In this document: one piece after another, positions 12,834-64,000 of the stretch | Layout of the letters: each line of letters begins with the position of its first letter | Numbering within the stretch: position 1 is the first letter of the stretch | NCBI GenBank assembly: GCA_048939995.1 | Contig: JBHLOY010000003.1 | Coordinates: forward strand, 192,001 to 256,000 | DNA: 64,000 bases | Source: Promethearchaeota archaeon | Lineage (GTDB): Archaea > Asgardarchaeota > Lokiarchaeia > Sigyniarchaeales > SOKP01 | Reading direction: 5' to 3' | Made by a program: the position numbers and the translations under genes | Notes under the pieces: model-generated | What the model was told of the DNA's origin: nothing | Seen by the model: only the letters and a program-made list of their open reading frames with translations | Databases searched by the model: none

Positions 12834-13448
12834 CTAAAAGCCAGCAATTGATTTTCCTGAAAGCTTTTTATAATGATTCAATACTGCTTGTCGAGCAGCA
12901 TATACAAATGCTCTCTTCACATTAACTCCTTGAATCGCAATTGTCTCATATACTAGACAATGATTTAATCTAGCAGTATCTAACACTTGCCTGATCTTTG
13001 AGATTTCCACAATTTCCTCCAAATCTCTTTTGTTAGCGAGCAAAACAATTGGCACTTCAGGAGGATCAAATTCTTTCACTGGAATAAGTTTATCACCATA
13101 AAATTTTAATAGCTCCTTAAGCGACCAAATATTTTCTTGCCATTGATCAATTAGAGAGTCCCACGTGAAAATTACAGCATCAGTCCCTTTTAACACGGTC
13201 TGTCTTTGAAATTTATGGCGTCTTTGTCCTGCCACGGTGTAAACCTGAAACACTACATTAGATACCCGAGCAACAACACGATCAAAAAAGAGAGTCCGAC
13301 CAGTAGGATCTTGTATTTGTTGCATGTCACCACTTGCTAAACCCTCTTTATGGTATACCCATTCGAGTGCGGTAGTTTTACCACCAAGGCTTGGTCCATA
13401 AAAACAAATTTTAAAGACTAATGTTCCATCTCCTCTACGTGAAGGCAC
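12834..13448 (-). CDS. MglA-like small GTPase (Ras superfamily)
   Basis: G1 YGPSLGGKTT, G2 GRTLFFD, G3 YTVAGQ (MglA-type TxxGQ), G4 NKRD; GTG start with GGAGTGA upstream. Confidence 0.9.
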   Translation of the reverse strand: MPSRRGDGTLVFKICFYGPSLGGKTTALEWVYHKEGLASGDMQQIQDPTGRTLFFDRVVARVSNVVFQVYTVAGQRRHKFQRQTVLKGTDAVIFTWDSLIDQWQENIWSLKELLKFYGDKLIPVKEFDPPEVPIVLLANKRDLEEIVEISKIRQVLDTARLNHCLVYETIAIQGVNVKRAFVYAARQAVLNHYKKLSGKSIAGF

Positions 13449-17469: not shown

Positions 17470-18324
17470 ATGCAATTTTTATTAGCACTGTCCTATTTTG
17501 ATCGAAAAATGGGACCTTGTGTATTTTATTCATATCCAGAGCATAAATTGAAAGAAGAAAATGCTTCAATCATTGCTAATTTAATGGACCAAATGATCTC
17601 AGAAGGATTCTTTACTCATTCATTTAATTCATTCTATACAATAAATTACTATTTTGAAATTGATTCAGAATGGGCTAGGGGAAAAAAAGAGTTCTTAATG
17701 ATATCAATAATATTTAAGCAACCAGTTTCTATTGAGACTGAGAAGGCATTATTTACTCTTTGTATTGAATTTATAGAATGGTTAAAAGCAAAAAAAGATA
17801 TTTTTAGTGCCTTTTATTTTAACACTGAGATAGATAATCAAAAGTATCATAATGATATCGAATATAATTTTAAGTTAATCATTGATTGGGTTCAAGAATT
17901 TAGTTTTGCAATAGAAGATGAGATTCAGAATAACCTAAAAGAGTTTAATATCTCTTCATTATTGGAGAAGCAAGAAGTTTTAGAAACTCTTAAGCTTTTA
18001 TCTGAGAAACCTTTACCAATAAGAGAATTGAAGACGTGGTATAATAAGGATTTTCCTCATAATAATTTTAACCAGCTTATTACTACATTGTTTAAGTGTT
18101 ACATTGTTTATATTCCAAAGATAGGAGGAAGGAAAGAAGCCCCTTTTAACGTTCATTTGACAAAAGAATTTAAAACTATAATTAAGCTAGTTGTTCTAAA
18201 AAACAAGCTTATTAAGGAATTTATAAAAAGCCATTTGTCAAAAGCTATACAAGATTTAGAAAAAAATTCCAAAGAATTTCATAAGTTTTTAGAAAGAGTA
18301 TTTTCTGAAAAACAGGTAATATAG
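17470..18324 (+). CDS. Longin/uDENN (folliculin-like) domain protein with C-terminal winged-helix-like region
   Basis: LSYFDRKMGPCVFYSYP first-strand motif; YFEIDSEWARG motif. Confidence 0.7.
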   Translation: MQFLLALSYFDRKMGPCVFYSYPEHKLKEENASIIANLMDQMISEGFFTHSFNSFYTINYYFEIDSEWARGKKEFLMISIIFKQPVSIETEKALFTLCIEFIEWLKAKKDIFSAFYFNTEIDNQKYHNDIEYNFKLIIDWVQEFSFAIEDEIQNNLKEFNISSLLEKQEVLETLKLLSEKPLPIRELKTWYNKDFPHNNFNQLITTLFKCYIVYIPKIGGRKEAPFNVHLTKEFKTIIKLVVLKNKLIKEFIKSHLSKAIQDLEKNSKEFHKFLERVFSEKQVI

Positions 18325-47479: not shown

Positions 47480-48649
47480 CTACTTTTTAACTAATAATTC
47501 TTTGATATTTGAAAGATTACCATTGCCAAGAAAGTTCTTTATTTTGTCTGAGTATTCAGGTAAAAGCTGTAAGAATGGTAAAATTGCTTTAGATAAACTA
47601 CTAAATGCTTCATCTCCATTTCCCATGATAAACATTTTCTCAGGACTTAGATTCTTGAAAATTTCAGGCAAAATATTTGTTAACTGAACAGCTAAGAATC
47701 TTTGATCCGCAGAACTCATTGCCTCAACCTGTTTTTCAAATCCTTCAGCTTGGGCTAACATCTGTTGCTTTATACTTTCAGCTTCACCTTCTGCTTGCGC
47801 AATTAGCCTCTTTTTAATTTGTGCAGCATCTGCTTCGGCTTCAATCACCTTCTTTTGACGGTCTCCATCGGCTTCAATCTTTTTACGTTCTCTCTCTTGT
47901 TCAGCTATTGCAATTTCTTTTTCCTTCCTCCTTATTTCAATATCTCTCTGAACCATTTGTTCTTGTGTTCCGACTTCGTTCTGAACTTCTAACTCTCTTA
48001 TCCTTGATTCTCTTTCAGCGTCTGCTTTAGCTATACGAGCTTTTCGATATTCTATAGCTTGTTTAGTTGCTTCCATGTTCCTCTTTAATTCTGGTTCTAA
48101 AATGTTAACTTCTCTAATTTCTATCGATTCAATTACAAGGCCCCAATCTGCAGTGAGTTCGTGTAATTCCTTACTGACATGTTCAATTATTTCACGGCGT
48201 TCTCTAATTATTTTTTCGAGAGGCATATTAGCACAAGTAGTTCTGATTATCGCTTCTGCTGCATTTTTTAATATTTTTTCTACGTAATGATCATCTCGAG
48301 AAATCCATGATACTGCACTAAAAGCTTTTTCTGGATCGATAACTTTCCAAATTAGCATTCCTACAATAGAGATGTTTTGATATTCCATGGATACTACTTG
48401 TTCATGAGCTTCTAGAATAGTTTGGATGCTCGTAGTAGGAATTACGATATATTCGTCAATTAGTGGTAATAGCCAGATTCTTCCGCCTAATCCTGCGGAC
48501 TTTACTTTACCGTTTCTTAAATGAATGACAAATTGGTTTGTTTTGAACTTTCTATACCTTGTAGCCATGAATATGATAAATAAAACAGCAATTATCACAA
48601 CAGTAACGATGATGCCGATTATCATTCCATTAATCTCTTGAAATAGCAT
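47480..48649 (-). CDS. SPFH/flotillin-family membrane protein
   Basis: N-terminal TM, Band-7 domain (WGLVIESIEIREV), AEA/EA coiled-coil repeats. Confidence 0.9.
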   Translation of the reverse strand: MLFQEINGMIIGIIVTVVIIAVLFIIFMATRYRKFKTNQFVIHLRNGKVKSAGLGGRIWLLPLIDEYIVIPTTSIQTILEAHEQVVSMEYQNISIVGMLIWKVIDPEKAFSAVSWISRDDHYVEKILKNAAEAIIRTTCANMPLEKIIRERREIIEHVSKELHELTADWGLVIESIEIREVNILEPELKRNMEATKQAIEYRKARIAKADAERESRIRELEVQNEVGTQEQMVQRDIEIRRKEKEIAIAEQERERKKIEADGDRQKKVIEAEADAAQIKKRLIAQAEGEAESIKQQMLAQAEGFEKQVEAMSSADQRFLAVQLTNILPEIFKNLSPEKMFIMGNGDEAFSSLSKAILPFLQLLPEYSDKIKNFLGNGNLSNIKELLVKK

Positions 48650-48700
48650 TTCTTTTCACTTCCTCCTTACTTTTTTATTTTTATATTTTTGTATATATTC

Positions 48701-48750
48701 TTAATTTTTTATTTAGATTTTTAATTTTTTATTTAGATTTTTAATTTTTT
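48701..48750. repeat. 20-bp tandem repeat TTAATTTTTTATTTAGATTT x2.5
   Basis: Read directly at the stop codon of the NfeD-like gene. Confidence 0.8.
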
Positions 48751-49535
48751 TTAAAATCCTTAGATCTTCTATCCACTAGAAGTATTTCATTCCTTACACC
48801 AACTATATAGACCTTTTCTTCTCTATCAAAAACGTCTCCTTGCCTGAAAGGCATAACATTTACTTTTTCATATTTCATAGGAGTATTAGAGGGAATTTTA
48901 ATTACACCACCATTATCATCGACCTTTAAAACCACTTCTCCCTCTCTGCCGAGCAAATTTCGAGTTGAAGCTATAGTGTAGTGCGAAGAAATAGCAATTT
49001 TCTTCCAGAGAATTGAAATAATTTTTATAGAAATAATACTTGCGACAGGAGCTATTACAAACATTAGAAACTTAAGAAAAACTCCTATGATGTAATATGA
49101 TGTTATCCCTGAAATCCCAAAAACTAATAACCCAGCTGATAATAAAAGCATAAATGGTGCTGGAGTACCGGAGTCTTGAATATGATCTGCATAATCATGA
49201 TCTATCTGATCAGTATGGTCGACATGATCGAAATGATCTACGTGATCGATATGGTCTGCTTGGTCAATATGGTCAAAATGATCTAAGTGATCGATGTGGT
49301 CTACTTGGTCAATATGGTCAAGATGATCTAAGTGATCGATGTGGTCTACTTGGTCAATATGGTCAAGATGATCTAGGTGATCGATGTGGTCTACATGGTC
49401 AATATGGTCGATTTGATCTGTAGCTTGAAGATCATGGGTCGACATTTCAGCAAGAATTAATGAAATAATAGACATAATAATTCCGCCAATGAATAATCCA
49501 AGGCATATATTAAAAAAAATATCATATAAATCCAT
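48741..49535 (-). CDS. NfeD/YqiJ-like membrane protein with long Asp-His tripeptide repeat
   Basis: TM, (DH[I/L/V/F])n tract, two TMs, LLGREGEV..GVIKI OB-fold; upstream of the SPFH gene. Confidence 0.82.
   Translation of the reverse strand: MDLYDIFFNICLGLFIGGIIMSIISLILAEMSTHDLQATDQIDHIDHVDHIDHLDHLDHIDQVDHIDHLDHLDHIDQVDHIDHLDHFDHIDQADHIDHVDHFDHVDHTDQIDHDYADHIQDSGTPAPFMLLLSAGLLVFGISGITSYYIIGVFLKFLMFVIAPVASIISIKIISILWKKIAISSHYTIASTRNLLGREGEVVLKVDDNGGVIKIPSNTPMKYEKVNVMPFRQGDVFDREEKVYIVGVRNEILLVDRRSKDFKKN
49180..49420 (-). repeat. Coding 9-bp/45-bp hierarchical tandem repeat (DHIDHLDHLDHIDQV units)
   Basis: Recurrent GGTCAATATGGTCAAGATGATCTAAGTGATCGATGTGGTCTACTT units on the + strand. Confidence 0.85.
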
Positions 49536-51937: not shown

Positions 51938-54900
51938 TCATTTTTCTGGTGATTTTTGAGAATAGTAAACATCTTCAAGGATTTCAAGGTATTCTATCAA
52001 TACTTTACTTGCTATAGATTTTTGTTCATATGATGTTTTAATGCCTCGTAAAAGATATTTGGGAAATATTAAATCTACATAGAAGTCAGATAAAAGAGCA
52101 TAATATTCATTATTAGCTTCATCGCGAAAAACAATCATCATATGATTCTCCCAAAGTAGTTTTAATGCCGTATACGGATCTTTTACTCCCTTTACTTTTA
52201 GCTTTTCTAATTCTTGTCTAGTTATTATTGAAGTTCTTAATAATCTCAATGTTAAATAAACCTGAGGATCGCTTAAAATTTTAACAACATTCAAATTATC
52301 TTCAATCGTAGGATGATAGCTTTGAAAGAATTCCTTAACTTTTTGTATATACTCTTTTTTAAATTGTTTTGGTAATCCCCGGCTAACAGGATTTTCTACT
52401 AAATTTATAGGAGGAACTCGCAACATATAGATGTCATTAATTAAAACAATTAATTCTGAAGGTAATCCCTTAATAGAAACCTGTTTTATAATACCCATCT
52501 TTAGCAAATCAGATAGAATAGCTTCTAAATCGACAAATGTCTCCATAAACTTATCTTTAAACCATATAGTTAACTCAGATTTGATAATTACTCCCATTTC
52601 ATTTAAATTTTCTATAATCATCCGCTTAGCTTCATCTTGATAGCTGAAAGCTAGTATTTCCTCATCACTAAGCGATGGATATAAGGATAAACGTCGGAAA
52701 TAAAATGGCATAAGTTGCTTATAAGAATCATCTTCAAAATTTTCTATGAGACCTCGAAAAACATCAACCAATCCTCCCTCATAAAGATCAGGATCATCGT
52801 CAAAATTTAAAATTAATAGAAGATAATAACCTTGTTCAGGTCCTGAATAGTAAGATAAAATGTTTGAAGTTTCAGTAGTTAACATTGTTATGCCTTTTTC
52901 TCCACTATATTCATGAGTACTATATACTTGCATACAAGTTTTTTCTGAAATTACAATTTTTTCTGGATATTTAGCTAAAATTTCTGTTCCAATTCGTTCA
53001 TTCCATCTCATGAGCGCCAATCCTATAGGATTTAATTCATGAACCTTCCCTATTTCACTGATTCTTCTTTGAGCTCTTTCGCTCTTTTTCACTTTTTCAG
53101 TTTTGATATTTAATATTTGACCTAGAGAAAGACCTACTTTATTCCATTTATGATTTACTTGTTGTACAATGAACTTTTCTTTATTGGGGTATAATAAAGA
53201 TTCCTCAATTGATTTCTGCTTTTTAATAGCTTTTTTCATAGCTCTTACTTTTCTTACAAAAACGGGTATTTTAGCACGGTGGTAAACTCTATATCCAACA
53301 AGACTTCCAACTATCGCAATCGTTGCTGCCACAATTAGTAAGAAATAGAAGGTTGGAAGCCCTGGAAAGATCTCTTCCATCTCAACGACAATTATAATAT
53401 CAAATTCTTGAGAGATATAATCCTCTTTTGTAATATTAATAGTTCCTGTAACTGTGGTAGAGGTGAAAAAGGCATCAATATTATCCGTATAGAAAGTAAA
53501 TGTGTAGGTACCATTCCCAATATACGTAAAATTGTACATATTACCACCTATCGTCAATATTACTGTAGCGTTAAGTAACCAACTATCTTGTTTTGTAGGA
53601 TCCGTTAAAATTAATTGTATTGGAACTGGATTGCCTTTCACTATACTTGTTCTTCTATTTTGGAAGTTATCGCTTAAAATAGGAGTCCCAATCTCTCGTT
53701 TGTTAATTGTTAAAAGCAACATTGCATTTTTACGATCATAATTATCTTTATCTAAAGCAATAATTAGAAGATATTCACCCACCATTCGTGATTGTGTATT
53801 AAAGTCTAAGATGTAAGTATTGTCTGAAGTTGTAATCATATTTTCTTGACCACTTTCAATTACATTACCTGCTTGATCATAGCGTTCCCAAAGATAATAT
53901 TGAGTTACTAAGTTTGTAATTTTATTTCCGCTTAAAGTATCCCTATATACAAATGTAAAATTAACCGTATCTTTAATGTAAATACTTTCAATTTTTCTGA
54001 AAAATTCTGAAGACTGGTTTAATAGGGTGGGGCGATTTAAAACATTTAATTTTAAATCTTTTATAGCTGAACTGAAATGGGCTTTTTGTGAAGTAAATCG
54101 TACAGTATATCGATCAGCATCAAGTAAAGACGTATCAATTGTCTTTAGGTAATATCCTAAGCTGGGATAATATGAAGTTGTTCCATAAATGGAAGGGCTC
54201 TCAACAACAACATATGATAAAGAGCCTATTGTTTCATATGATACTGTTCGTGAATATTTAATTGAAAATTGAAGCGTGAAATTTACCTGGAAACCAGTTT
54301 CAATAACTGTATGAAAGATTTGTTCTTTAGTGAACCCTCGTAGGGAAAAGGTTCCTATACCAAGAGTAAAATCAGATACCGCATACTTTTGTCCACCAAT
54401 GGTGATATTCATTGCTAAATATGAGGGGTGAAAATAAGTTGAACCACTTTTTATTTCTTTAACCCATAAAAATGCTTCGAGTTCATTCCAATGACTTTCA
54501 CCGGCGTCTACTTGAAAAAAACCTCCATTAGTGATTCCTGATTCTATTATCGTGAGATTAAGTGTTTCCAAACGGAGGTTCTGATAAAAACCTTGAACAT
54601 ATTCAACATAGATGATTGTATTAAAGATGATATTAGGCTGACTTTCAATTGTAAAAACAAATTTGTTGCCAATAGGATAGATGAGTCTATCATCGATGGT
54701 TAAGGAACCTGTTCCATTCGTATAACCATAATCTAGTGTATAGCTAAACCCTTCGTTTGTACTAACATTCAAGGAGCTCAAACTTGATAAATCTACAACA
54801 CTCCAATCAGAGGTGTTATAGCACTCAAATATCTCAAAACTGATGTTATTAATTGTCCAACCTTCCACTTCTGTTAAAATAGATATCTCATTACTAACAT

Positions 54901-57900
54901 TAAATTTTGAATATTGAACATCAATTGAATCTCTAATAAAGTATACATCTGCTATAATATCAATGGAGTTATCAAAAGAACCTCCAATTATGAACTCAAA
55001 AATGTTATTATGTGTAGGGCTAGCTTTATTTATATTTAAGGTAATTCCTTTCCACGTACGCCCCAAATAATCCCATCCACTATAATTGGAACTATGGAAC
55101 ATATAAAAGTTTCCAAAAGGGTCTTCAACGGTAATGTTAATGTCAGATACACCAACATTCCATGAAATATTATAAAGATTTAACACTATTTTGGATAAAT
55201 TCCAATGGGTTTCTAAATCAGAAATTAATAAATCAAATTCATGATTGATATTCTGGAAGAGAGCATTTTCTATAGTAAGGATTTCAGAATTACTGCCATA
55301 TGAGCTCAATGTCATATTAGCAGTTTCTAACCAATATACAGATTGATCAGAATCATTATTATCAGATTGATTTAATTCTAAGTCATTATTTAAAACGTCT
55401 AGCTGAAAAATTAAGTCAGAGGGAATAACATAGCCTGATTTATAAGCTGAAATTATAATTATATACTTTTTCGCACTCTCCAGTTGTTTTGTGTTTATCT
55501 CTATAAAGTGTCTCCCTAGGTTGCCTATCTCCTTTAAAAATGTTCCTGATTTTACAATGACCCCCCCAAATAATAAGTCATATGTCATTGAGTCTGCATA
55601 TGTAGGTCCTAAAAGATCTTTATAATCTTCTTCTACTTTACTAACATTAAATAAAGTCCGAAGCTTTAATACAGAACCCCAATCAATTTCAATATAATCT
55701 GTTGGATTTAATGATACCAACTCCGTTTGAAAATTACTTAAACCTGCTATCGAAAACCTAAATTCGTATGAATCTTTATTTACAACTGTAAAGCTATAAT
55801 TATTCCAATTAGGAAGGCCTCCAACAGTTCGATTGAAATCTTGGTTCCTTCCATAAAATTCGATTTGAAGACAATAGTCTCCATTAATCTCAAATGAATT
55901 CAACCACTTTAAAGTTGCTTTTCCATTTATGTTGGTGGTTAAATTAACAATACTTAATCCTAATGGATCGTTAACAGTTAACTTAAGTTTAACACCACTT
56001 ACTGGAGTAATTGGAGCATCAAAAGTTAGGACAGTAAATTCTACAGTAGTCAAATTTACTTGAATTGGGATAGTCTCATTAAAAGTAGTGATATCTCCTG
56101 AAGCAAGTTTGATAGTATGTGGGTTATAAATTGGATTGCTATAATATACCGAATAGTTATAAAAAGAGGGAGGTTCATCAACCCACCAAAATTTTGTATG
56201 TCCTGAAGAATCTATTACACACTTTTGTAGTGGTTGCGTAGCATTACCTACAATTATCCAACCAGATTCAACAGGATTGGAATCTACATCAATTATTTCA
56301 AAGAAATGAGTGCTCACATCACAAATTAGATTAATGGTTTGAAATGGTTGATCAAGCATAATTGCCTGAGATGTAGTATTTACAACTGCAACAATATTTC
56401 CAATATTTGAACGAATAGTTGCGGTAAAATTATATTCCCCTTCAAAGATGTCTGTGAAACTCACACTACCATTAATGCTGGTGATATCTTGTTCTATTAA
56501 ATCCAAATTCTGATACATTGAAATAGTAACATTAGGTAGTAAATTACCATATAAATCCAATGCGTTAATTAAAACATCTACTTCTATGACCGGTTTAGAA
56601 TGTTTTTCAGTACTTACATTGTAAAAATTATTAGGACTATATTGATTGTTATATTCAGTTTCAATCCATCCTTCCGATCTGTAATCATTTAATACCCGAA
56701 ATTCATCTAAATATCCCTTGAAGCTATTTGAAAATCTACCAAAATAAAAGGAACTCGTATCTGCAATAAGAGAATACCCTCCTATATTTGTCGAAGGCCC
56801 TAATTGACCATTATTATATGTTTTTAGGTAGGTTCCATCGTAGGAATATGTAATATAGTTCCATTCTAACCGATTAACCACTACATTATTATATGTCGTA
56901 CCACGAGTAACGAATTGAATGTCAGATTGATATCTTGCTGTACCTGGAGGGAACCCACTTAGCCTCCAAAATCGATTCAATCTAACAGAAGATAGTTTGT
57001 AAAATACTGACCCTTCTGTTGCTTCCATTTCTGCATCAGTTGCATAATTAGGGTAAACCCAAAAAGAAAAGGTAAATTTACTATCCCCATTAAAAAATTC
57101 TGATCCTCTATTGATAAGTATTCTATTATCACCCGATCCTGAAAAATATCTAGCTCCATCTATAATACTTGTTCCATAAAACTGAGTACCATAAGGAGTT
57201 CCATCATAATCATTTGAAGTTGAATCTTTAATATAATCCCCTGTGCCTGAGACTTCACTGAAGTGCCATACTGATTTATAATCCAGCCATACTCCTATTG
57301 GATTTTGGCGAGAATTCATAGTAAAATTGCCATAATGCATAATTATTTCAGTATCCTCTGCCGTAGATAAAAATGGTATACGTACCCAAGCAATCAATTG
57401 TGCGTGAGAACTATTATAGCCTTGATTAAATAATTCTATTTGGTGGTCTAACCATTGACCCCCAAATGAAAAGGCAATATCATCTCCATCAGATTGTACA
57501 TCAAAGCGCAAGTCTTTATCAAGAATAGAGACCAAAAGAGGAAAATTAACATGACTTCCTTCTCCAATTACTTTTGTGTGGTCGATTGTAATTATTTTAT
57601 GATAATCAAAGTAATCCGCATTTGGAGTAATCTCATTTACTACTTCTTCTCCTCCTACTGAACCAAATGAACTAGGATTATTCAGGTTATCATATTCTGT
57701 TTTTAACCAGTCATCTGACCGAGTTGTGGATGAAATTCTAACCTCGTCAATGATCGCATCAATAGGTCTATTTCCCGTAGGACTATTTCCAATTGTTATT
57801 GGCCAATTATTTTCACGCAAGGATCCTGTTTTAGCTAGTGTGAAAACAGTGTTTCCATCTAAAACAAGATTTATATTTGAGCCATCATATCTGATTGACA

Positions 57901-59932
57901 TTAAATACCATGTATCGATTGAGAGAGGACCTGATGTAGCTTCTAGCGTAGAAGTGCCAGTTAAATCATCATTTCCAGTTTTAATCCTTCCTCGCGAGAA
58001 ATATGGACCATTTTCGTTTAATGATTGATTGTATGAACCGAGCATCCATACATGATCTTGAGCATTATCACTCGTACCTGAATTCTTAGACAAAATACGA
58101 GCATCACTATACCCTGACCAAATTGAATCAAAAGATTCATATTTAACCCATGCTTGTATAGTTATCTTACTTCCTGAAACACTCCACGTTCCTATATTAA
58201 TATTATCACTTGCATCATCATGTTCAAAATCTTGGCCATCACCTATCTTTCCTTTCACATCTACTGAACCCGTATTAATTCCATCTCTATTATGAGAAGT
58301 GGCGTCCAAAAAGTCATCATCTAAATGATAAACACCTTCATAATTACTATCCCAAACACCCTCTGGGTTTTCTCGAGCGTTCATGGTGGAATTTCCATAA
58401 TACATAGTAATAGTTGTATTAATACTAGAATATAAATTAGGAATTTGAACCCATACGGTTAATTGAGCCTCTGTACTGCTATAGGATTGATTAAATATTA
58501 AAATATCATGATCTAACCAATCTCCGTCGGCTGCAAAAGCAATATCATCCCCATCTGACTGAGCATGGTATTTTAAATCCTTATCAACAATCGAAAACAA
58601 AAAGGGAAAATTGCTATGAATCCCACTCCCCGATACTTCATTATGATCTATTGTAATAAGTTTATAATAAGCGAAATAATGTGAATTTGGAGGCTCCCAA
58701 ACAACAGCCTTTTCATTTCCAATAGTAGAAAAAGAATTAGGATTATATTGATTATTGTATTCTGTTAATATCCAGCTACTTGAAAGAGTACTTTGGAGAA
58801 TCCTAAACTCTGAAATTGCCCCCGGACCCCAAACACCTGACCCGCCAAGCGTTGCTAAAATTGAAAATTGATCCCATGGTAGATGTGGATATCCGAGATC
58901 TGAACTACTATCATCTAAGTCTAATGTGCCATTTACATATTCATACGAACTTTGTAAACTCAAAGACCTAAAATAAGTAAATTGAAACCATTTATCAGCT
59001 GGCCATGAGTTTTTAATCCCATAAATTCCTTCACTATTATCTGTTGTTGTCTCTAAATAAACATTAACAGTTCCACTGGTTGTAAATCTCATTTCTGGTG
59101 ATAAATCGGGAGTATTACCTTGGAAAAAGGCCATATTAGGACTTCCACTGGCGATTGTATTATCAGGTTTAAACCAAGTTTGAAATGCCATATCATTTAT
59201 AGGACCATTGATACCATTTATGTAAAAATAATCATTACTTCCATCAACAGAAATTGCTGTGCCTACCTTTCCATCATAAAAACGTGTATCACTACTAAAT
59301 CCTGTTGTAGTTAAATCATAATCATTTGAAGTACTATCTAAAATATTAGAAGATGAAGGATCTTGATTCATATGCCATACCGCCACATAATTACTACTCC
59401 ATACTCCAGCTGGATTTTGTCGTGAATTCATTGTCGAGTTTCCATAATACATTCTAATGATTGTATCGATAGTAGCTGATAGTGCTGGAATTCGAACCCA
59501 AACAACCAATTTAGCATGTGTTGTATTATATGCTTGATCAAATAACTCAATTTCATGATCTAACCAAATATTGTTAGAAGAAAAAGCAATGTCATTTCCG
59601 TTAGATTGAACATCAGAACGTAAATCAGCATCAAAAATTGAGATGAGAAATGGAAAATTGGTAAGTCCACTAGTTCCTGAAACTTGATTATGATCTATGG
59701 TTATTGTTTTATAATAGGTGAAATAATTAGCATGGAGGGGAGCACTTAACTTCAATTTTTCATCATTAATATCTTTATTTTTCATAAATCCATTATTGGA
59801 TAATATTGATAAAAAAGGCATGCTGATTAACATCGGGAATAAAATTGTGAACAATAAGAATAGATATGCCTTAATTTTTCTTTTTGTCTTGATTGATATA
59901 ATTTTGTTAGCTTTCATCTTTATCAAATTCAA
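51938..59932 (-). CDS. Giant type-I membrane protein: 3x(DUF2341+LamG) ectodomain, Ig-like stalk, TM, cytoplasmic longin-like plus winged-helix region
   Basis: N-terminal hydrophobic signal; three YKTITIDH..NFP..GDDIAF..WV.IP..YYGN..GVW repeats, each followed by LamG (..IDEVRIS..W..EY.N); many NxS/T sequons; TM FYFLLIVAATIAIVGSLVGY; LMRWNERIGTEILAKYP. Confidence 0.85.
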   Translation of the reverse strand: MNLIKMKANKIISIKTKRKIKAYLFLLFTILFPMLISMPFLSILSNNGFMKNKDINDEKLKLSAPLHANYFTYYKTITIDHNQVSGTSGLTNFPFLISIFDADLRSDVQSNGNDIAFSSNNIWLDHEIELFDQAYNTTHAKLVVWVRIPALSATIDTIIRMYYGNSTMNSRQNPAGVWSSNYVAVWHMNQDPSSSNILDSTSNDYDLTTTGFSSDTRFYDGKVGTAISVDGSNDYFYINGINGPINDMAFQTWFKPDNTIASGSPNMAFFQGNTPDLSPEMRFTTSGTVNVYLETTTDNSEGIYGIKNSWPADKWFQFTYFRSLSLQSSYEYVNGTLDLDDSSSDLGYPHLPWDQFSILATLGGSGVWGPGAISEFRILQSTLSSSWILTEYNNQYNPNSFSTIGNEKAVVWEPPNSHYFAYYKLITIDHNEVSGSGIHSNFPFLFSIVDKDLKYHAQSDGDDIAFAADGDWLDHDILIFNQSYSSTEAQLTVWVQIPNLYSSINTTITMYYGNSTMNARENPEGVWDSNYEGVYHLDDDFLDATSHNRDGINTGSVDVKGKIGDGQDFEHDDASDNINIGTWSVSGSKITIQAWVKYESFDSIWSGYSDARILSKNSGTSDNAQDHVWMLGSYNQSLNENGPYFSRGRIKTGNDDLTGTSTLEATSGPLSIDTWYLMSIRYDGSNINLVLDGNTVFTLAKTGSLRENNWPITIGNSPTGNRPIDAIIDEVRISSTTRSDDWLKTEYDNLNNPSSFGSVGGEEVVNEITPNADYFDYHKIITIDHTKVIGEGSHVNFPLLVSILDKDLRFDVQSDGDDIAFSFGGQWLDHQIELFNQGYNSSHAQLIAWVRIPFLSTAEDTEIIMHYGNFTMNSRQNPIGVWLDYKSVWHFSEVSGTGDYIKDSTSNDYDGTPYGTQFYGTSIIDGARYFSGSGDNRILINRGSEFFNGDSKFTFSFWVYPNYATDAEMEATEGSVFYKLSSVRLNRFWRLSGFPPGTARYQSDIQFVTRGTTYNNVVVNRLEWNYITYSYDGTYLKTYNNGQLGPSTNIGGYSLIADTSSFYFGRFSNSFKGYLDEFRVLNDYRSEGWIETEYNNQYSPNNFYNVSTEKHSKPVIEVDVLINALDLYGNLLPNVTISMYQNLDLIEQDITSINGSVSFTDIFEGEYNFTATIRSNIGNIVAVVNTTSQAIMLDQPFQTINLICDVSTHFFEIIDVDSNPVESGWIIVGNATQPLQKCVIDSSGHTKFWWVDEPPSFYNYSVYYSNPIYNPHTIKLASGDITTFNETIPIQVNLTTVEFTVLTFDAPITPVSGVKLKLTVNDPLGLSIVNLTTNINGKATLKWLNSFEINGDYCLQIEFYGRNQDFNRTVGGLPNWNNYSFTVVNKDSYEFRFSIAGLSNFQTELVSLNPTDYIEIDWGSVLKLRTLFNVSKVEEDYKDLLGPTYADSMTYDLLFGGVIVKSGTFLKEIGNLGRHFIEINTKQLESAKKYIIIISAYKSGYVIPSDLIFQLDVLNNDLELNQSDNNDSDQSVYWLETANMTLSSYGSNSEILTIENALFQNINHEFDLLISDLETHWNLSKIVLNLYNISWNVGVSDINITVEDPFGNFYMFHSSNYSGWDYLGRTWKGITLNINKASPTHNNIFEFIIGGSFDNSIDIIADVYFIRDSIDVQYSKFNVSNEISILTEVEGWTINNISFEIFECYNTSDWSVVDLSSLSSLNVSTNEGFSYTLDYGYTNGTGSLTIDDRLIYPIGNKFVFTIESQPNIIFNTIIYVEYVQGFYQNLRLETLNLTIIESGITNGGFFQVDAGESHWNELEAFLWVKEIKSGSTYFHPSYLAMNITIGGQKYAVSDFTLGIGTFSLRGFTKEQIFHTVIETGFQVNFTLQFSIKYSRTVSYETIGSLSYVVVESPSIYGTTSYYPSLGYYLKTIDTSLLDADRYTVRFTSQKAHFSSAIKDLKLNVLNRPTLLNQSSEFFRKIESIYIKDTVNFTFVYRDTLSGNKITNLVTQYYLWERYDQAGNVIESGQENMITTSDNTYILDFNTQSRMVGEYLLIIALDKDNYDRKNAMLLLTINKREIGTPILSDNFQNRRTSIVKGNPVPIQLILTDPTKQDSWLLNATVILTIGGNMYNFTYIGNGTYTFTFYTDNIDAFFTSTTVTGTINITKEDYISQEFDIIIVVEMEEIFPGLPTFYFLLIVAATIAIVGSLVGYRVYHRAKIPVFVRKVRAMKKAIKKQKSIEESLLYPNKEKFIVQQVNHKWNKVGLSLGQILNIKTEKVKKSERAQRRISEIGKVHELNPIGLALMRWNERIGTEILAKYPEKIVISEKTCMQVYSTHEYSGEKGITMLTTETSNILSYYSGPEQGYYLLLILNFDDDPDLYEGGLVDVFRGLIENFEDDSYKQLMPFYFRRLSLYPSLSDEEILAFSYQDEAKRMIIENLNEMGVIIKSELTIWFKDKFMETFVDLEAILSDLLKMGIIKQVSIKGLPSELIVLINDIYMLRVPPINLVENPVSRGLPKQFKKEYIQKVKEFFQSYHPTIEDNLNVVKILSDPQVYLTLRLLRTSIITRQELEKLKVKGVKDPYTALKLLWENHMMIVFRDEANNEYYALLSDFYVDLIFPKYLLRGIKTSYEQKSIASKVLIEYLEILEDVYYSQKSPEK

Positions 59933-62900
59933 CTATAAAATAATTTTGTGTAAAATATATATATTAAAAAAAAAATAGTGTAATTTGTATTTATATTTGA
60001 AGTTTGCAAGAACAAGAGTAGCTTCACTCCCCTTTAGATTTTTCCAAGTTTTTTAAATTAAAATATACCTCTTCTAGAATTGTAAGATACTCAATTAAGG
60101 CTTTCTTATTTTTCGACTTTTGCTCATATTCAATTTTCACTGCTTTCAATAAATATTTTGGAAAAAGATATTCAATATAGACATCTGAAAGGAGTGCATA
60201 GTATTCAATGTTCTTATCATCATGATACACTTTTATCATCTGATTATCCCAGAGAATTTTTAAGACACCATAAATATCATCAACGCCTTTCTGTCTAAGC
60301 TTCTCAAGATCTTGTCTTGTTACGATCGCAGTTCTTAAAAGTCTCAAAGTCTCATATACTTGTGGATTAGTTAAGATCTTAGCTATTTTAATGTTGTCTT
60401 CTTCTGCTGGGCGATAATTCTGAAAAAAGCTCGTTACATCATTGGGATATTCAGTAGTAAATTGACGAGGTAAGCCATGGCTAGTTGGTTTATCAAGTAA
60501 TTTAAGTGGTGGGATTCTTAAGATAAATATATCATTAGTGAGAAAAACTAATTCTGATGGGATTTTCTTTACCGAACTAATTTTTATAATTTCTAGTTTA
60601 ACAAGTTCATTTAAGATCGCCTCCATATCAAAAAAGCCTTCCATATATTTATCTTTAAGCAATATTGTTAACTCTGATTTAGTTATAACTCCATCATCTC
60701 TTAGTAAATTGATAATAGTACGTATAATCTTGTTATGATAAGCAAGTGCAAGAGATTCTTCAGAACTAAGTGATGGATATAATGATAAGCGCTGAAAAAG
60801 TGGCTTAACCATCTGGATATTTAATTCATCCTCACGATTTTCTAAAAGAGTTTGTAAAATATTAGCCATTCCACCTTCATAAAGATCGGGATCATCATCT
60901 AAACCTAAAATTAAAACAAGATAATAACCTTGTTCAGGTCCAGCATAATAAGATAATAAATTTGATCCCTCTGTAGTTAACATTATAATCCCTTTTTCTC
61001 CACTATATTCATGTGTACTATATATTTGCATTAGCGTTTTACTCGATAACTGTATATCTTCGGGATATTTACTTAATACTTCCATTCCAATTCTCTCATC
61101 CCATTTCATTAAAAATAAACCACCTGGTTTTTTATCTTGGGTTTTAGTTATTTGTGAAGGCCTTCCTTTGATTATTGCTTCCTCTTTTTCTTTCTCAATG
61201 GTAATTCCAAGTATCTCTTCTATTGATAATCCAATCTTCGCCCAATCTTTTTTTATAATCTTCCCAATGAATACTTGTTTATCACTATAAAGTAGTGATT
61301 CAGCAATACTATCATCTTTTTTAATAGCTTTTTTCATTGCCCTTACTCTTCTTACAAAAGCGGGAATTTTGGCATAATGATAAACTCTATATCCAACGAT
61401 ACTTCCTACTATCGCGATAGTTGCAGCTAAAATTAGTAGGAAATAAAAGGTTGGCATCCCTGGAAAGATTTGTTCCATTTCAACGACAATAATAATATCA
61501 AATTCTTGAGAAATATAATCCTCTTTTGTGATATTGATAGTTCCTGTAAATGTAACCGATGTGAAAAAGGCATCAACATTATTCGTAGAAAACGTAAATG
61601 TGTATACACCATTCCCAATATGCGTAAAATTGTATACATTTCCACCCATCGTCAATATTACTGTAGCGTTAAGTAACCTAATATCATTTTTTGTAGGATC
61701 AGTCAGAATTAATTGTATTGGAACCAGATTGCCTTTCACTACACTTGTTTGTCTATTTTGGAAGTTATCACTTAAAATAGGAATCCCGATCTCTCGCTTT
61801 TTAATAGTCAAAAATAACATTGCATTCTTATAATCATAATTTATTCTTTCTAAAATAACAATTAGGAGATACTCCCCTACTAATCGTGATTGTGTATTAA
61901 AGTCTAAGATATAGGTATTATCCGTAGCGGTAATTATATTTCCTTGACCACTTTCAATTACATTACCTGCTTGATCATAGCGTTCCCAAAGGTAATATTT
62001 AGTTTCTAAGTTGGCAATTTTGGCTCCGCTTATTGCATCAGTATAGACAAAAGTGAAATTAACTGTATCCTTTATATAAATGCTTTCAATTTTTCTAAAA
62101 AAGTCTGAAGACTGGTTTAATAAAGTAGGGCGATTCAAGACATTCAAATTTAAATCTTTTATAGCTGCACCAAAATGGGCTTTTTGTAAAGTAAATCGTA
62201 CAGTATATTGATCAGTATCAAGCAAAGACGTATCAATTGTCTTTAGGTAATATCCTAAACTGGGATAATATGAAGCAGTTCCATAGATGGAAGGATTCTC
62301 AACAATTGAATACGATAAAGAACCTATTGTTTCATACGATACCGTTCGTGAATACTTGATTGAAAGTTGAAGGGTGAAATTTACCTGGAAAGCAGTTTCA
62401 ATAACCGCATGTAGGATTTGTTCTTTCGTAAAGCCTCTTAGCGAGAATGTTCCCATACCGAGAGTAACATCAGATATTGCATATTTTTGCCCTCCAATAG
62501 TGATATTCATTGCTAAATCTGAGGGGAGGAAATAAGTTGAACCACTTTTTATTTCTTTAACCCATAAAAATGCTTCGAGTTCATTCCAATGACTTTCGCC
62601 GGCGTCTACTTGTATCATACCTCCATTAGTGATCCCTGGTTCTACTATCGTGAGATTAAATGTTTCCAAACGGAGGTTCTGATAAAAGCCTTGAACATAT
62701 TCAACATAAATGATTGCATTAAAGATAATATAAGGCTGACTTTCAATTGTAAATACAAATTGGTTTCCAATAGAATAAATCTGTCTATCATCGATGGTTA
62801 AGGAGCCTGTTCCATTCGTATAGCCATGATCTAGTGCATATATAAACCCTTCGTTTGTACTAATATTCAGAATACTTAAACTTGATAAATCCACGACACT

Positions 62901-64000
62901 CCAATTAGAGGTGTTATAACACTCAAATATCTCAAAAGTGATGTTATCTATTGTCCAGCCTTCTACTTCCGTTAAAAGAGATATCTCATTGCTAACATTA
63001 AATTTTGAATATTGAACATTAATTGAATCTCTAATAAAGTATGCATCTGCTATAATATCAATGGGGCTATCAAAGGAACCCCCAATTATGAACTCAAAAA
63101 TGTTATTATGTGTAAGGCTAGCTTTATTTATATTTAAGGTAATTCCTTTCCACGTACGCCCCAAATAATCCCATCCACTATGATTGGAACTATGGAACAT
63201 ATAAAAGTTTCCAAAAGGGTCTTCAACGGTAATATTGATGTCAGATATACCAACATTCCATGAAATATTATAAAGATTTAATATTATTTTGGATAAATTC
63301 CAATGAGTTTCTAAATCAGAAATTAAGAAATCAAATTCATGATTGATATTCTGGAAGAGAGCATTTTCTATGGTAAGCATTTCAGAATTGCTGCCATATG
63401 AGCTTAATGTCATATTAGCAGTTTCTAACCAATATACAGATTGATCAGAATCAACATTTTCAGATTGATTTAATTCTAAGTCATTGTTTAAAATATCAAG
63501 CTGAAGAATTAAGTCAGAAGGAATAATAAAACCCGATTTATAAGCTGAAATTATAATTATATAACTTTTATCACTCTCAAGTTGGTTCGTATTTATCTCT
63601 ATAAAGTGTCTCCCTAGGTTGCCTATCTCCTTTGAAAATGTTCCTGACTTTACAGGAATACCTCCAAACAGCAAATCGTATCTCATTGAGTCTGCATAAG
63701 TAGGTCCTAAAAGATCTTTATATTCTTCTTCTACTTTACTAACATTAAACAATGTTCGAAGTTTTAATACAGAACCCCATTCAATTTCAATATAATCTGT
63801 TGGATTTAATGATATTAATTCTGTTTGAAAATTGCTCAAACCTGTTATTGAAAATCTAAATTCATATGAATCTTTATTTACAACTGTAAAAGTATAATTA
63901 TTCACTTCAGGAATCCCTCCAACAGTTCGATTAAAATCTTGATTCCTTCCATAAAATTCGATTTGAAGGCAATAGTCTCCACTGATCTCAAAAGAAGTCA
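53220..64000. repeat. Long direct duplication: 53220..55900 versus 61320..64000 (offset about 8.1 kb)
   Basis: Long near-identical nucleotide runs, e.g. GGTAATTCCTTTCCACGTACGCCCCAAATAATCCCATCCACTAT in both copies. Confidence 0.9.
60024..64000 (-). CDS. Paralogous giant type-I membrane protein (5' part outside the window)
   Basis: Frame stays open to the window end; stalk, TM and cytoplasmic longin-like region collinear with 51938..59932. Confidence 0.85.
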   Translation of the reverse strand, partial: TSFEISGDYCLQIEFYGRNQDFNRTVGGIPEVNNYTFTVVNKDSYEFRFSITGLSNFQTELISLNPTDYIEIEWGSVLKLRTLFNVSKVEEEYKDLLGPTYADSMRYDLLFGGIPVKSGTFSKEIGNLGRHFIEINTNQLESDKSYIIIISAYKSGFIIPSDLILQLDILNNDLELNQSENVDSDQSVYWLETANMTLSSYGSNSEMLTIENALFQNINHEFDFLISDLETHWNLSKIILNLYNISWNVGISDINITVEDPFGNFYMFHSSNHSGWDYLGRTWKGITLNINKASLTHNNIFEFIIGGSFDSPIDIIADAYFIRDSINVQYSKFNVSNEISLLTEVEGWTIDNITFEIFECYNTSNWSVVDLSSLSILNISTNEGFIYALDHGYTNGTGSLTIDDRQIYSIGNQFVFTIESQPYIIFNAIIYVEYVQGFYQNLRLETFNLTIVEPGITNGGMIQVDAGESHWNELEAFLWVKEIKSGSTYFLPSDLAMNITIGGQKYAISDVTLGMGTFSLRGFTKEQILHAVIETAFQVNFTLQLSIKYSRTVSYETIGSLSYSIVENPSIYGTASYYPSLGYYLKTIDTSLLDTDQYTVRFTLQKAHFGAAIKDLNLNVLNRPTLLNQSSDFFRKIESIYIKDTVNFTFVYTDAISGAKIANLETKYYLWERYDQAGNVIESGQGNIITATDNTYILDFNTQSRLVGEYLLIVILERINYDYKNAMLFLTIKKREIGIPILSDNFQNRQTSVVKGNLVPIQLILTDPTKNDIRLLNATVILTMGGNVYNFTHIGNGVYTFTFSTNNVDAFFTSVTFTGTINITKEDYISQEFDIIIVVEMEQIFPGMPTFYFLLILAATIAIVGSIVGYRVYHYAKIPAFVRRVRAMKKAIKKDDSIAESLLYSDKQVFIGKIIKKDWAKIGLSIEEILGITIEKEKEEAIIKGRPSQITKTQDKKPGGLFLMKWDERIGMEVLSKYPEDIQLSSKTLMQIYSTHEYSGEKGIIMLTTEGSNLLSYYAGPEQGYYLVLILGLDDDPDLYEGGMANILQTLLENREDELNIQMVKPLFQRLSLYPSLSSEESLALAYHNKIIRTIINLLRDDGVITKSELTILLKDKYMEGFFDMEAILNELVKLEIIKISSVKKIPSELVFLTNDIFILRIPPLKLLDKPTSHGLPRQFTTEYPNDVTSFFQNYRPAEEDNIKIAKILTNPQVYETLRLLRTAIVTRQDLEKLRQKGVDDIYGVLKILWDNQMIKVYHDDKNIEYYALLSDVYIEYLFPKYLLKAVKIEYEQKSKNKKALIEYLTILEEVYFNLKNLEKSKGE

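Follow-up and report, generated by a model that had tools for sequence, protein, structure and literature searches.

Two tandem giant surface proteins of a Lokiarchaeial genome carry a cytoplasmic module of a finger-less longin and two winged helices, with a suggested link to small GTPases

We analysed a stretch of 64,000 nucleotides (nt) from a Promethearchaeota archaeon, which we call the window (C28:192001-256000, that is, positions 192,001 to 256,000 of contig JBHLOY010000003.1, in a genome, G000, of 3.75 Mb and 30% GC). At its end lie two tandem genes, A and B, which encode giant surface proteins with 62.6% identity to each other and whose named homologs come mostly from Promethearchaeota/Lokiarchaeia. 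The features of both genes, and of a soluble longin gene to which their cytoplasmic parts are compared below, are as follows in window coordinates.

51938-59932, minus strand: gene A, surface protein with a longin/winged-helix module, 2664 amino acids (aa); probable start ATG at 59914.
59801-59875, minus strand: N-terminal hydrophobic segment of A (residues ~20-44), signal peptide or signal anchor.
56558-59740, minus strand: three DUF2341+LamG units of A, putative adhesion or lectin tip.
53363-56557, minus strand: sequon-rich stalk of A, 89% identical in nt to the B stalk via gene conversion.
53294-53350, minus strand: transmembrane helix of A, residues 2195-2213.
53039-53293, minus strand: basic juxtamembrane segment of A, with a strongly conserved motif.
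52679-53032, minus strand: longin domain of A, with a W-D/N-x-x-x-G motif and the Arg-finger loop deleted at about 52826-52849.
51941-52678, minus strand: two winged-helix domains of A (about 52439-52639 and 52091-52273) with helical linkers and acidic recognition helices.
60024-64000, minus strand: gene B, residues ~1328-2651 inside the window; the rest of the gene reaches window position 67979.
61392-61448, minus strand: transmembrane helix of B, residues 2178-2196.
61131-61391, minus strand: basic juxtamembrane segment of B.
60024-61130, minus strand: longin and tandem winged-helix module of B, 60% identical to the A module.
17470-18324, plus strand: soluble longin with a GP motif and a W-A-R-G arginine-finger loop, a shortened member of a catalytic-type family.

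The start of gene A is probably the ATG at 59914 because its orthologs begin there. Gene B encodes 2651 aa and runs from C28:259979, about 4 kb beyond the window, down to 60024; the window therefore contains only its stalk, transmembrane helix and tail, and its three tips are invisible there. The signal segment and the three DUF2341+LamG units of B were confirmed on the genome sequence outside the window. We rejected an assembly artefact or frameshift as the origin of the fused frames because contigs from independent runs span the transmembrane-module junction with no difference seen, and 76 homologs are fused in the same way.

Pfam recognised three LamG_3 and three DUF2341 stretches in A and likewise in B, as an earlier note made from the letters of the window had read them. 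The three units of A share 34-39% identity with one another. The stalk, about 1000-1070 aa long in the two proteins, probably consists of beta-sandwich repeats; the leads to its fold are weak and Ig/transthyretin-like, and an atlas feature search with the stalk gave leads that were all below 0.9. Each protein has an N-terminal hydrophobic segment, one internal transmembrane helix and ~450 cytoplasmic residues. All sequons, 43 in A and 41 in B, precede the transmembrane helix, and none occurs in the ~450 aa beyond it; the 76 fused homologs have 2.65 sequons per 100 aa N-terminal to the helix and 0.17 per 100 aa beyond it. The 20 aa before the helix contain no K/R and 4-5 D/E, while the 25 aa after it contain 9-10 K/R and no D/E in both proteins. 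Since the sequons are confined to one side, the charge is biased across the helix and AglB/STT3 is encoded in the genome, the C-terminus lies inside the cell and not outside it. A and B are thus type-I single-pass surface glycoproteins with an export signal, one transmembrane helix, a positive-inside tail and sequons only in the ectodomain, which is probably glycosylated. The sequon-bearing stalk, the single helix and the basic juxtamembrane segment of the earlier note were all recovered, and the motifs it had quoted for the start of a tail of about 350 aa are found 358 and 362 aa before the C-terminal ends.

The same kind of tip occurs elsewhere in G000. DUF2341+LamG tips sit on other cytoplasmic modules at C14:4419, C6:140603, C17:348694, C17:519775, C31:36925-51740 and C6:26224; these modules are of a ~250-aa helical-repeat type and of a type of ~285-360 aa, the latter in tandem on C31. 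This suggests that the DUF2341+LamG proteins of G000 form a combinatorial family of tips and tails. A second type of single-pass surface protein (C16:2363-6319, C17:440401-443934 and C28:448770-452093) has a cytoplasmic part of ~240-250 aa in which, by eye, the start resembles a classical longin and the end a winged helix; the C16 tail gave no Pfam match.

The cytoplasmic module of 366 aa was modelled by AlphaFold2 from 136 sequences with a pLDDT of 92.4 and a pTM of 0.86. In the model, residues 1-120 have the topology beta-beta-alpha-beta-beta-beta-alpha-alpha (E6-13, E17-24, H32-45, E49-54, E58-64, E71-78, H83-99, H106-118). The six best Foldseek matches, with E values from 3e-4 to 1e-3, are all GATOR1/SEA chains, and the top match in VIA-align is the GATOR1 chain 8fw5_B (Z 12.3, root-mean-square deviation 2.6, 119 aa), which, from its chain and length, we take to be NPRL2. 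VAMP7 (11.9), SEA (11.6), DENND1A (11.3) and a Lokiarchaeal longin (10.8) follow; many longins match at Z 10-12 over 106-127 aa, with roadblocks lower at about 9. The model therefore firmly places the N-terminal part among the longins, which was the outcome expected by the earlier note when it proposed an AlphaFold/Foldseek check of the tail. An assignment to NPRL2-type longins in particular is, by these models, a tie with the VAMP7 and DENN longins, as VAMP7 and DENND1A come within 1 Z unit of the top and identities are 9-12%. In sequence searches of Pfam, NCBIfam and the PDB the module went unrecognised except for one weak winged-helix match, and no NPR2/NPR3 match was found in Pfam.

The remainder of the module forms two winged helices, both in the AlphaFold2 model and in structure searches, in agreement with the winged-helix-like segments noted earlier; the structural matches are generic, with Z up to 9.2. 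When this part was searched alone in two structure searches, NPRL2/3 did not appear in the top 50, a result with which a relation is still compatible. Winged helices that weakly resemble ArsR/MarR regulators (best E 2e-4), set within a single-pass protein, raise the idea of a membrane-tethered transcription regulator of the ToxR/CadC type, in which the winged helices would bind DNA upon an extracellular signal. We consider this very improbable: both recognition helices are acidic, with D/E at exposed positions in 50-86% of the family, no basic wing is conserved, the average net charge of the whole module is -12, and the arrangement follows a eukaryote-type longin.

The comparison with the soluble longin at 17470 bears on the probable function. 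Its family, defined by the GP and W-A-R-G motifs, was found in 31 of 31 genomes of the relatives search. HHalign of the module against this family gave a probability of 99.8% over 327 columns, with an 8-residue deletion in the module exactly at the finger loop (beta4-beta5), so that the kinship without the ARG motif proposed in the earlier note holds. An Arg of any kind occurs in the loop region of only 19 of 132 module homologs. The module family keeps W (91%), D (82%) and G (95%) of the motif, whereas the proline of the GP motif is present in just 12% and is replaced by T in A and M in B. By these alignments the module is a full-length paralog of the Asgard GP+Arg-finger longins. Because the arginine-finger loop is deleted it is probably non-catalytic, and since W, D and G are kept while the proline and the finger are lost, its motifs make it look like the non-catalytic member of a catalytic/non-catalytic longin pair. 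The finger-bearing paralogs of G000, among them those at C5:13699 and window 17470, fit the published GP+Arg class, which one report links to eukaryotic longins of GTPase-activating proteins (GAPs) (PMC12290439). Beside the 17470 longin, 4 kb away, an MglA-like small GTPase by eye, with Pfam Ras/Arf matches, is encoded at 12834-13448 on the minus strand.

Among the closest known systems is the NPRL2-NPRL3 pair of GATOR1/SEACIT (yeast Npr2-Npr3; GAP for RagA/B), whose subunits likewise consist of an N-terminal longin followed by winged helices (PMC5681675), two in the module. In both systems finger-bearing and finger-less paralogs coexist. They differ in that NPRL2/3 are soluble and tethered by DEPDC5 and KICSTOR, while the module is fused to an ectodomain; moreover, the whole-chain template modelling score is just about 0.2-0.35, the winged-helix part did not retrieve the C-terminal domain of NPRL2/3, and Pfam NPR2 is absent. 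C9orf72, the non-catalytic partner of SMCR8, and FNIP, the partner of FLCN, also have a finger-less longin, and the spacing of W-D and G in the module equals that of the C9orf72 motif W33-D34..G38 given in PMC12290439. Unlike C9orf72 and FNIP, the module lacks the GP proline, has winged helices instead of DENN lobes and belongs to a membrane-spanning protein. The longin SNAREs VAMP7, Sec22 and Ykt6 are membrane-attached as well, and tie in fold (Z 11.9), but they are tail-anchored, have a SNARE motif and lack an ectodomain.

The module is far more widespread than the fusion. Of 201 Asgard genomes, 146 have it, in most cases encoded by a gene of its own, and it is present in all 30 relatives, always in soluble form. 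Across the order, the best soluble copies start 0-4 nt behind a gene for a transmembrane protein, the last ~350 aa of which match residues 1950-2290 of A with E down to 1e-81; the juxtamembrane segment of A is homologous to the entire cytoplasmic tail of such unfused surface proteins. Contig C10 of G000 itself contains two unfused pairs, each with a ~1450-aa single-pass protein followed immediately by a soluble module of ~367 aa, and a third fused copy lies on C17. Among 150 matches listed, transmembrane-fused frames occur in four genomes, all of one Lokiarchaeial family. In a quick, midpoint-rooted tree of 76 rows with at least 40% identity to the C10 module, which left out distant paralogs, a single clade (SH-aLRT 96) unites 48 fused sequences and one fragment, one long-branch fused sequence sits apart from it, and the A, B and C17 copies fall into separate subclades. 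The fusion is thus a derived event restricted, among the matches listed, to one Lokiarchaeial family, and the fused protein is consequently not ancestral to eukaryotes; the split pair, in contrast, is an old, Asgard-wide unit. The juxtamembrane motif remained strongly conserved after fusion and is basic, whereas the longin is acidic, with an average net charge of -9, which fits a retained contact between tail and adaptor.

Further relatives were seen in G000 and beyond. Distant soluble paralogs of the module lie at C28:327395, C17:53181, C7:70318 and C28:126996. The first two adjoin ~540-aa transmembrane proteins with a similar basic tail and also a gene of ~650-730 aa with helical-bundle matches; C7:70318 has an MglA-like GTPase 0.9 kb away, and C28:126996 is a lone longin. 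Soluble homologs with C-terminal extensions of 180-690 aa are P0212, P0238, P0242, P0269 and P0177. A convergent gene of ~450 aa, RuBisCO-like by eye, recurs behind the split pair (C10:12768-14138 in G000; loci L009-L019).

The segments of A and B have diverged to different degrees: identity is 45% for the tips, 87% for the stalk and 60% for the module. The stalks are 89% identical in nt and 79% at fourfold sites, as against 27% at fourfold sites for the module. With the ortholog from the related genome G155 as a reference, 211 stalk sites are common to A and B versus 40 common to the orthologs. The tips of this ortholog side with A (412 versus 47 informative sites), as does its module (82 versus 29), and the stalk alone sides with B (211 versus 40). 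These patterns indicate that the stalks were homogenised within the genome by gene conversion while each set of tips retained its own tail. An exchange of tips between the two genes by way of the homogenised stalk was not seen: tips and module both side with A in G155. The pairing of tips and tails is compatible with dedicated input-output pairs or, equally, with simple non-crossover conversion. Across orthologs the tips are not hypervariable (73-85% identity versus 75% for the module).

The gene neighbourhood and the paralogy to GP+Arg-finger longins both suggest a link to GTPases. In three of four genomes the fused copies are flanked by a gene for a longin-Arf-like GTPase. Head-to-head with B lies a 684-aa gene combining a longin, an Arf-like GTPase, a putative roadblock and a Rab-like GTPase; the longin-Arf-like gene is directly downstream of the fused gene in G155 and convergent with it in G178, another related genome with fused genes, so that the linkage survived three different arrangements. 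A 344-aa gene of this kind sits between the two split pairs of C10, and all seven closest members of its subfamily adjoin a module gene. The double-GTPase protein beside B is encoded just outside the window at L001:10265-12319 (C28:260265-262319), in the order longin, degenerate Arf-like domain, helical segment, roadblock-like part (by eye) and canonical Rab-like domain. Elsewhere in the window, at 47480-49535 on the minus strand, an SPFH/flotillin gene follows that of an NfeD-like membrane protein (by eye) with a long His/Asp-rich repeat.

From these observations we tentatively favour an adhesin-tethered, non-catalytic platform for small-GTPase regulation. Outside, a long stalk bears a tip that resembles an adhesin or lectin and would bind a surface; inside, the covalently attached adaptor, with its NPRL2/3-like architecture of a longin and two winged helices, would most likely contribute the non-catalytic half, or a docking platform, to a small-GTPase regulator of the longin type. 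In most Asgards the adaptor is a separate protein that probably docks on the basic inner tail of the surface protein. The adaptor may pair either with the longin-Arf-like GTPase encoded nearby or with a paralog that carries the finger, in the way that NPRL3 pairs with NPRL2. Binding of the tips to a surface, followed by clustering, could then concentrate the regulation of GTPases at that patch of membrane. The earlier note had proposed that such receptors couple contact or glycan sensing directly to GTPase or trafficking modules; the GTPase part of this remains suggested. Direct conformational transmission across the intervening stalk of ~1000 aa is unlikely, and the catalytic finger is absent; any outside-in signal would presumably have to pass by clustering or force.

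Several points weigh against the platform. The LamG/DUF2341 annotation does not establish that the tips bind carbohydrate, and the GP proline is missing from the module. In the double-GTPase protein beside B, the first of the two G domains has a degenerate G1 and G3. No longin-Arf-like GTPase gene was found near the C17 fused copy or several soluble paralogs, and most of the longer GTPase subfamily shows no linkage to module genes. The linked genomes are close kin and hence not independent. Longins also act without GTPases, as in SNAREs and adaptins. In MK-D1, gene order is a poor guide to which GTPase and which regulator form a pair (PMC10933270). A complex prediction of the B cytoplasmic region with the neighbouring longin-GTPase and GTP/Mg scored 0.01, which carries no weight for or against.

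The same neighbourhood could be read in the opposite direction, with an Arf-like GTPase controlling the module, which would sort or retrieve the surface protein or place it at protrusions, in vesicles or at a pole, while nothing is sensed outside. In the AP and COPI coats it is longin subunits, controlled by Arf, that hold the tails of cargo, and the fold search also returned such longins (Z 8-10). Arf is the best-scoring family of the linked GTPase, the conserved tail motif is positioned like a sorting signal, and the long stalk speaks against conformational signalling. Coat adaptors, however, are common to many cargoes, while the surface proteins here each have a module of their own or are even fused to it, and the paralogy of the module is to GAP-type longins; we regard this inside-out role as rather unlikely. 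We also regard as rather unlikely a GTPase-independent scaffold, in which the module would be an intracellular foot of the giant adhesin, forming oligomers or attaching it to the cytoskeleton or some other scaffold, with the GTPase genes as neighbours by history. It would account for the absent finger and the incomplete GTPase linkage; the tandem winged helices resemble scaffold proteins (weak matches to ESCRT-II, Nse1/3 and cullin WHB), and G000 joins the same tips to other, unrelated cytoplasmic modules. The recurrence of one GTPase family across orientations and the shared descent with GAP-type longins argue against it.

A more specific form of the platform reading, in which Asgard archaea would have a whole family of contact receptors, takes plexins as its analogy. 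Plexins are single-pass adhesion and guidance receptors that are activated by clustering and have an intracellular small-GTPase regulatory domain with an active RasGAP fold. The analogy would be purely functional, with no homology to A and B. Paralog-specific lectin or adhesin tips would cluster on a partner cell, the finger-less NPRL3-like longin would recruit a finger-bearing NPRL2-like paralog, and an Arf/Rag-like GTPase would be switched at the contact. We think this improbable; if true, it would amount to a surface-to-small-GTPase pathway in a prokaryote, with the archaeal relative of GATOR1 as its intracellular half.

Earlier publications already describe NPRL2-like longins, GP+Arg longins and longin-GTPase fusions from Asgards. 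In the accessible parts of these reports (bioRxiv 10.1101/2020.10.19.343400; PMC12290439), the NPRL2-like and FLCN/SMCR8-type longins belong to the same superfamily as the module and are soluble or fused to two-component domains, and a finger-less family joined to giant surface proteins, in one frame or as a neighbour, is not mentioned. Our literature search, which was thin on subscription papers and did not include figure panels, found no account of the surface-protein fusion, nor of any longin/winged-helix family that lacks the finger and is coupled to, or fused with, such giant proteins of the surface.

Asgards have dozens of small GTPases and longins without assigned partners, and many unexplained large surface proteins (PMC10933270, PMC9834061). 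The natural fusion names a concrete trio of a surface protein, a longin adaptor and a candidate GTPase, the intracellular parts of which are all small and soluble and can therefore be expressed and assayed. Because the fusion appears lineage-restricted, its value lies in the evidence it gives on the older split system. If the GTPase link is true, it would reveal the membrane site of an archaeal longin regulator and a possible route of origin for catalytic/non-catalytic longin pairs like NPRL2/NPRL3. The two neighbouring giant surface proteins thus offer a testable physical link from the cell surface to eukaryote-like GTPase machinery.

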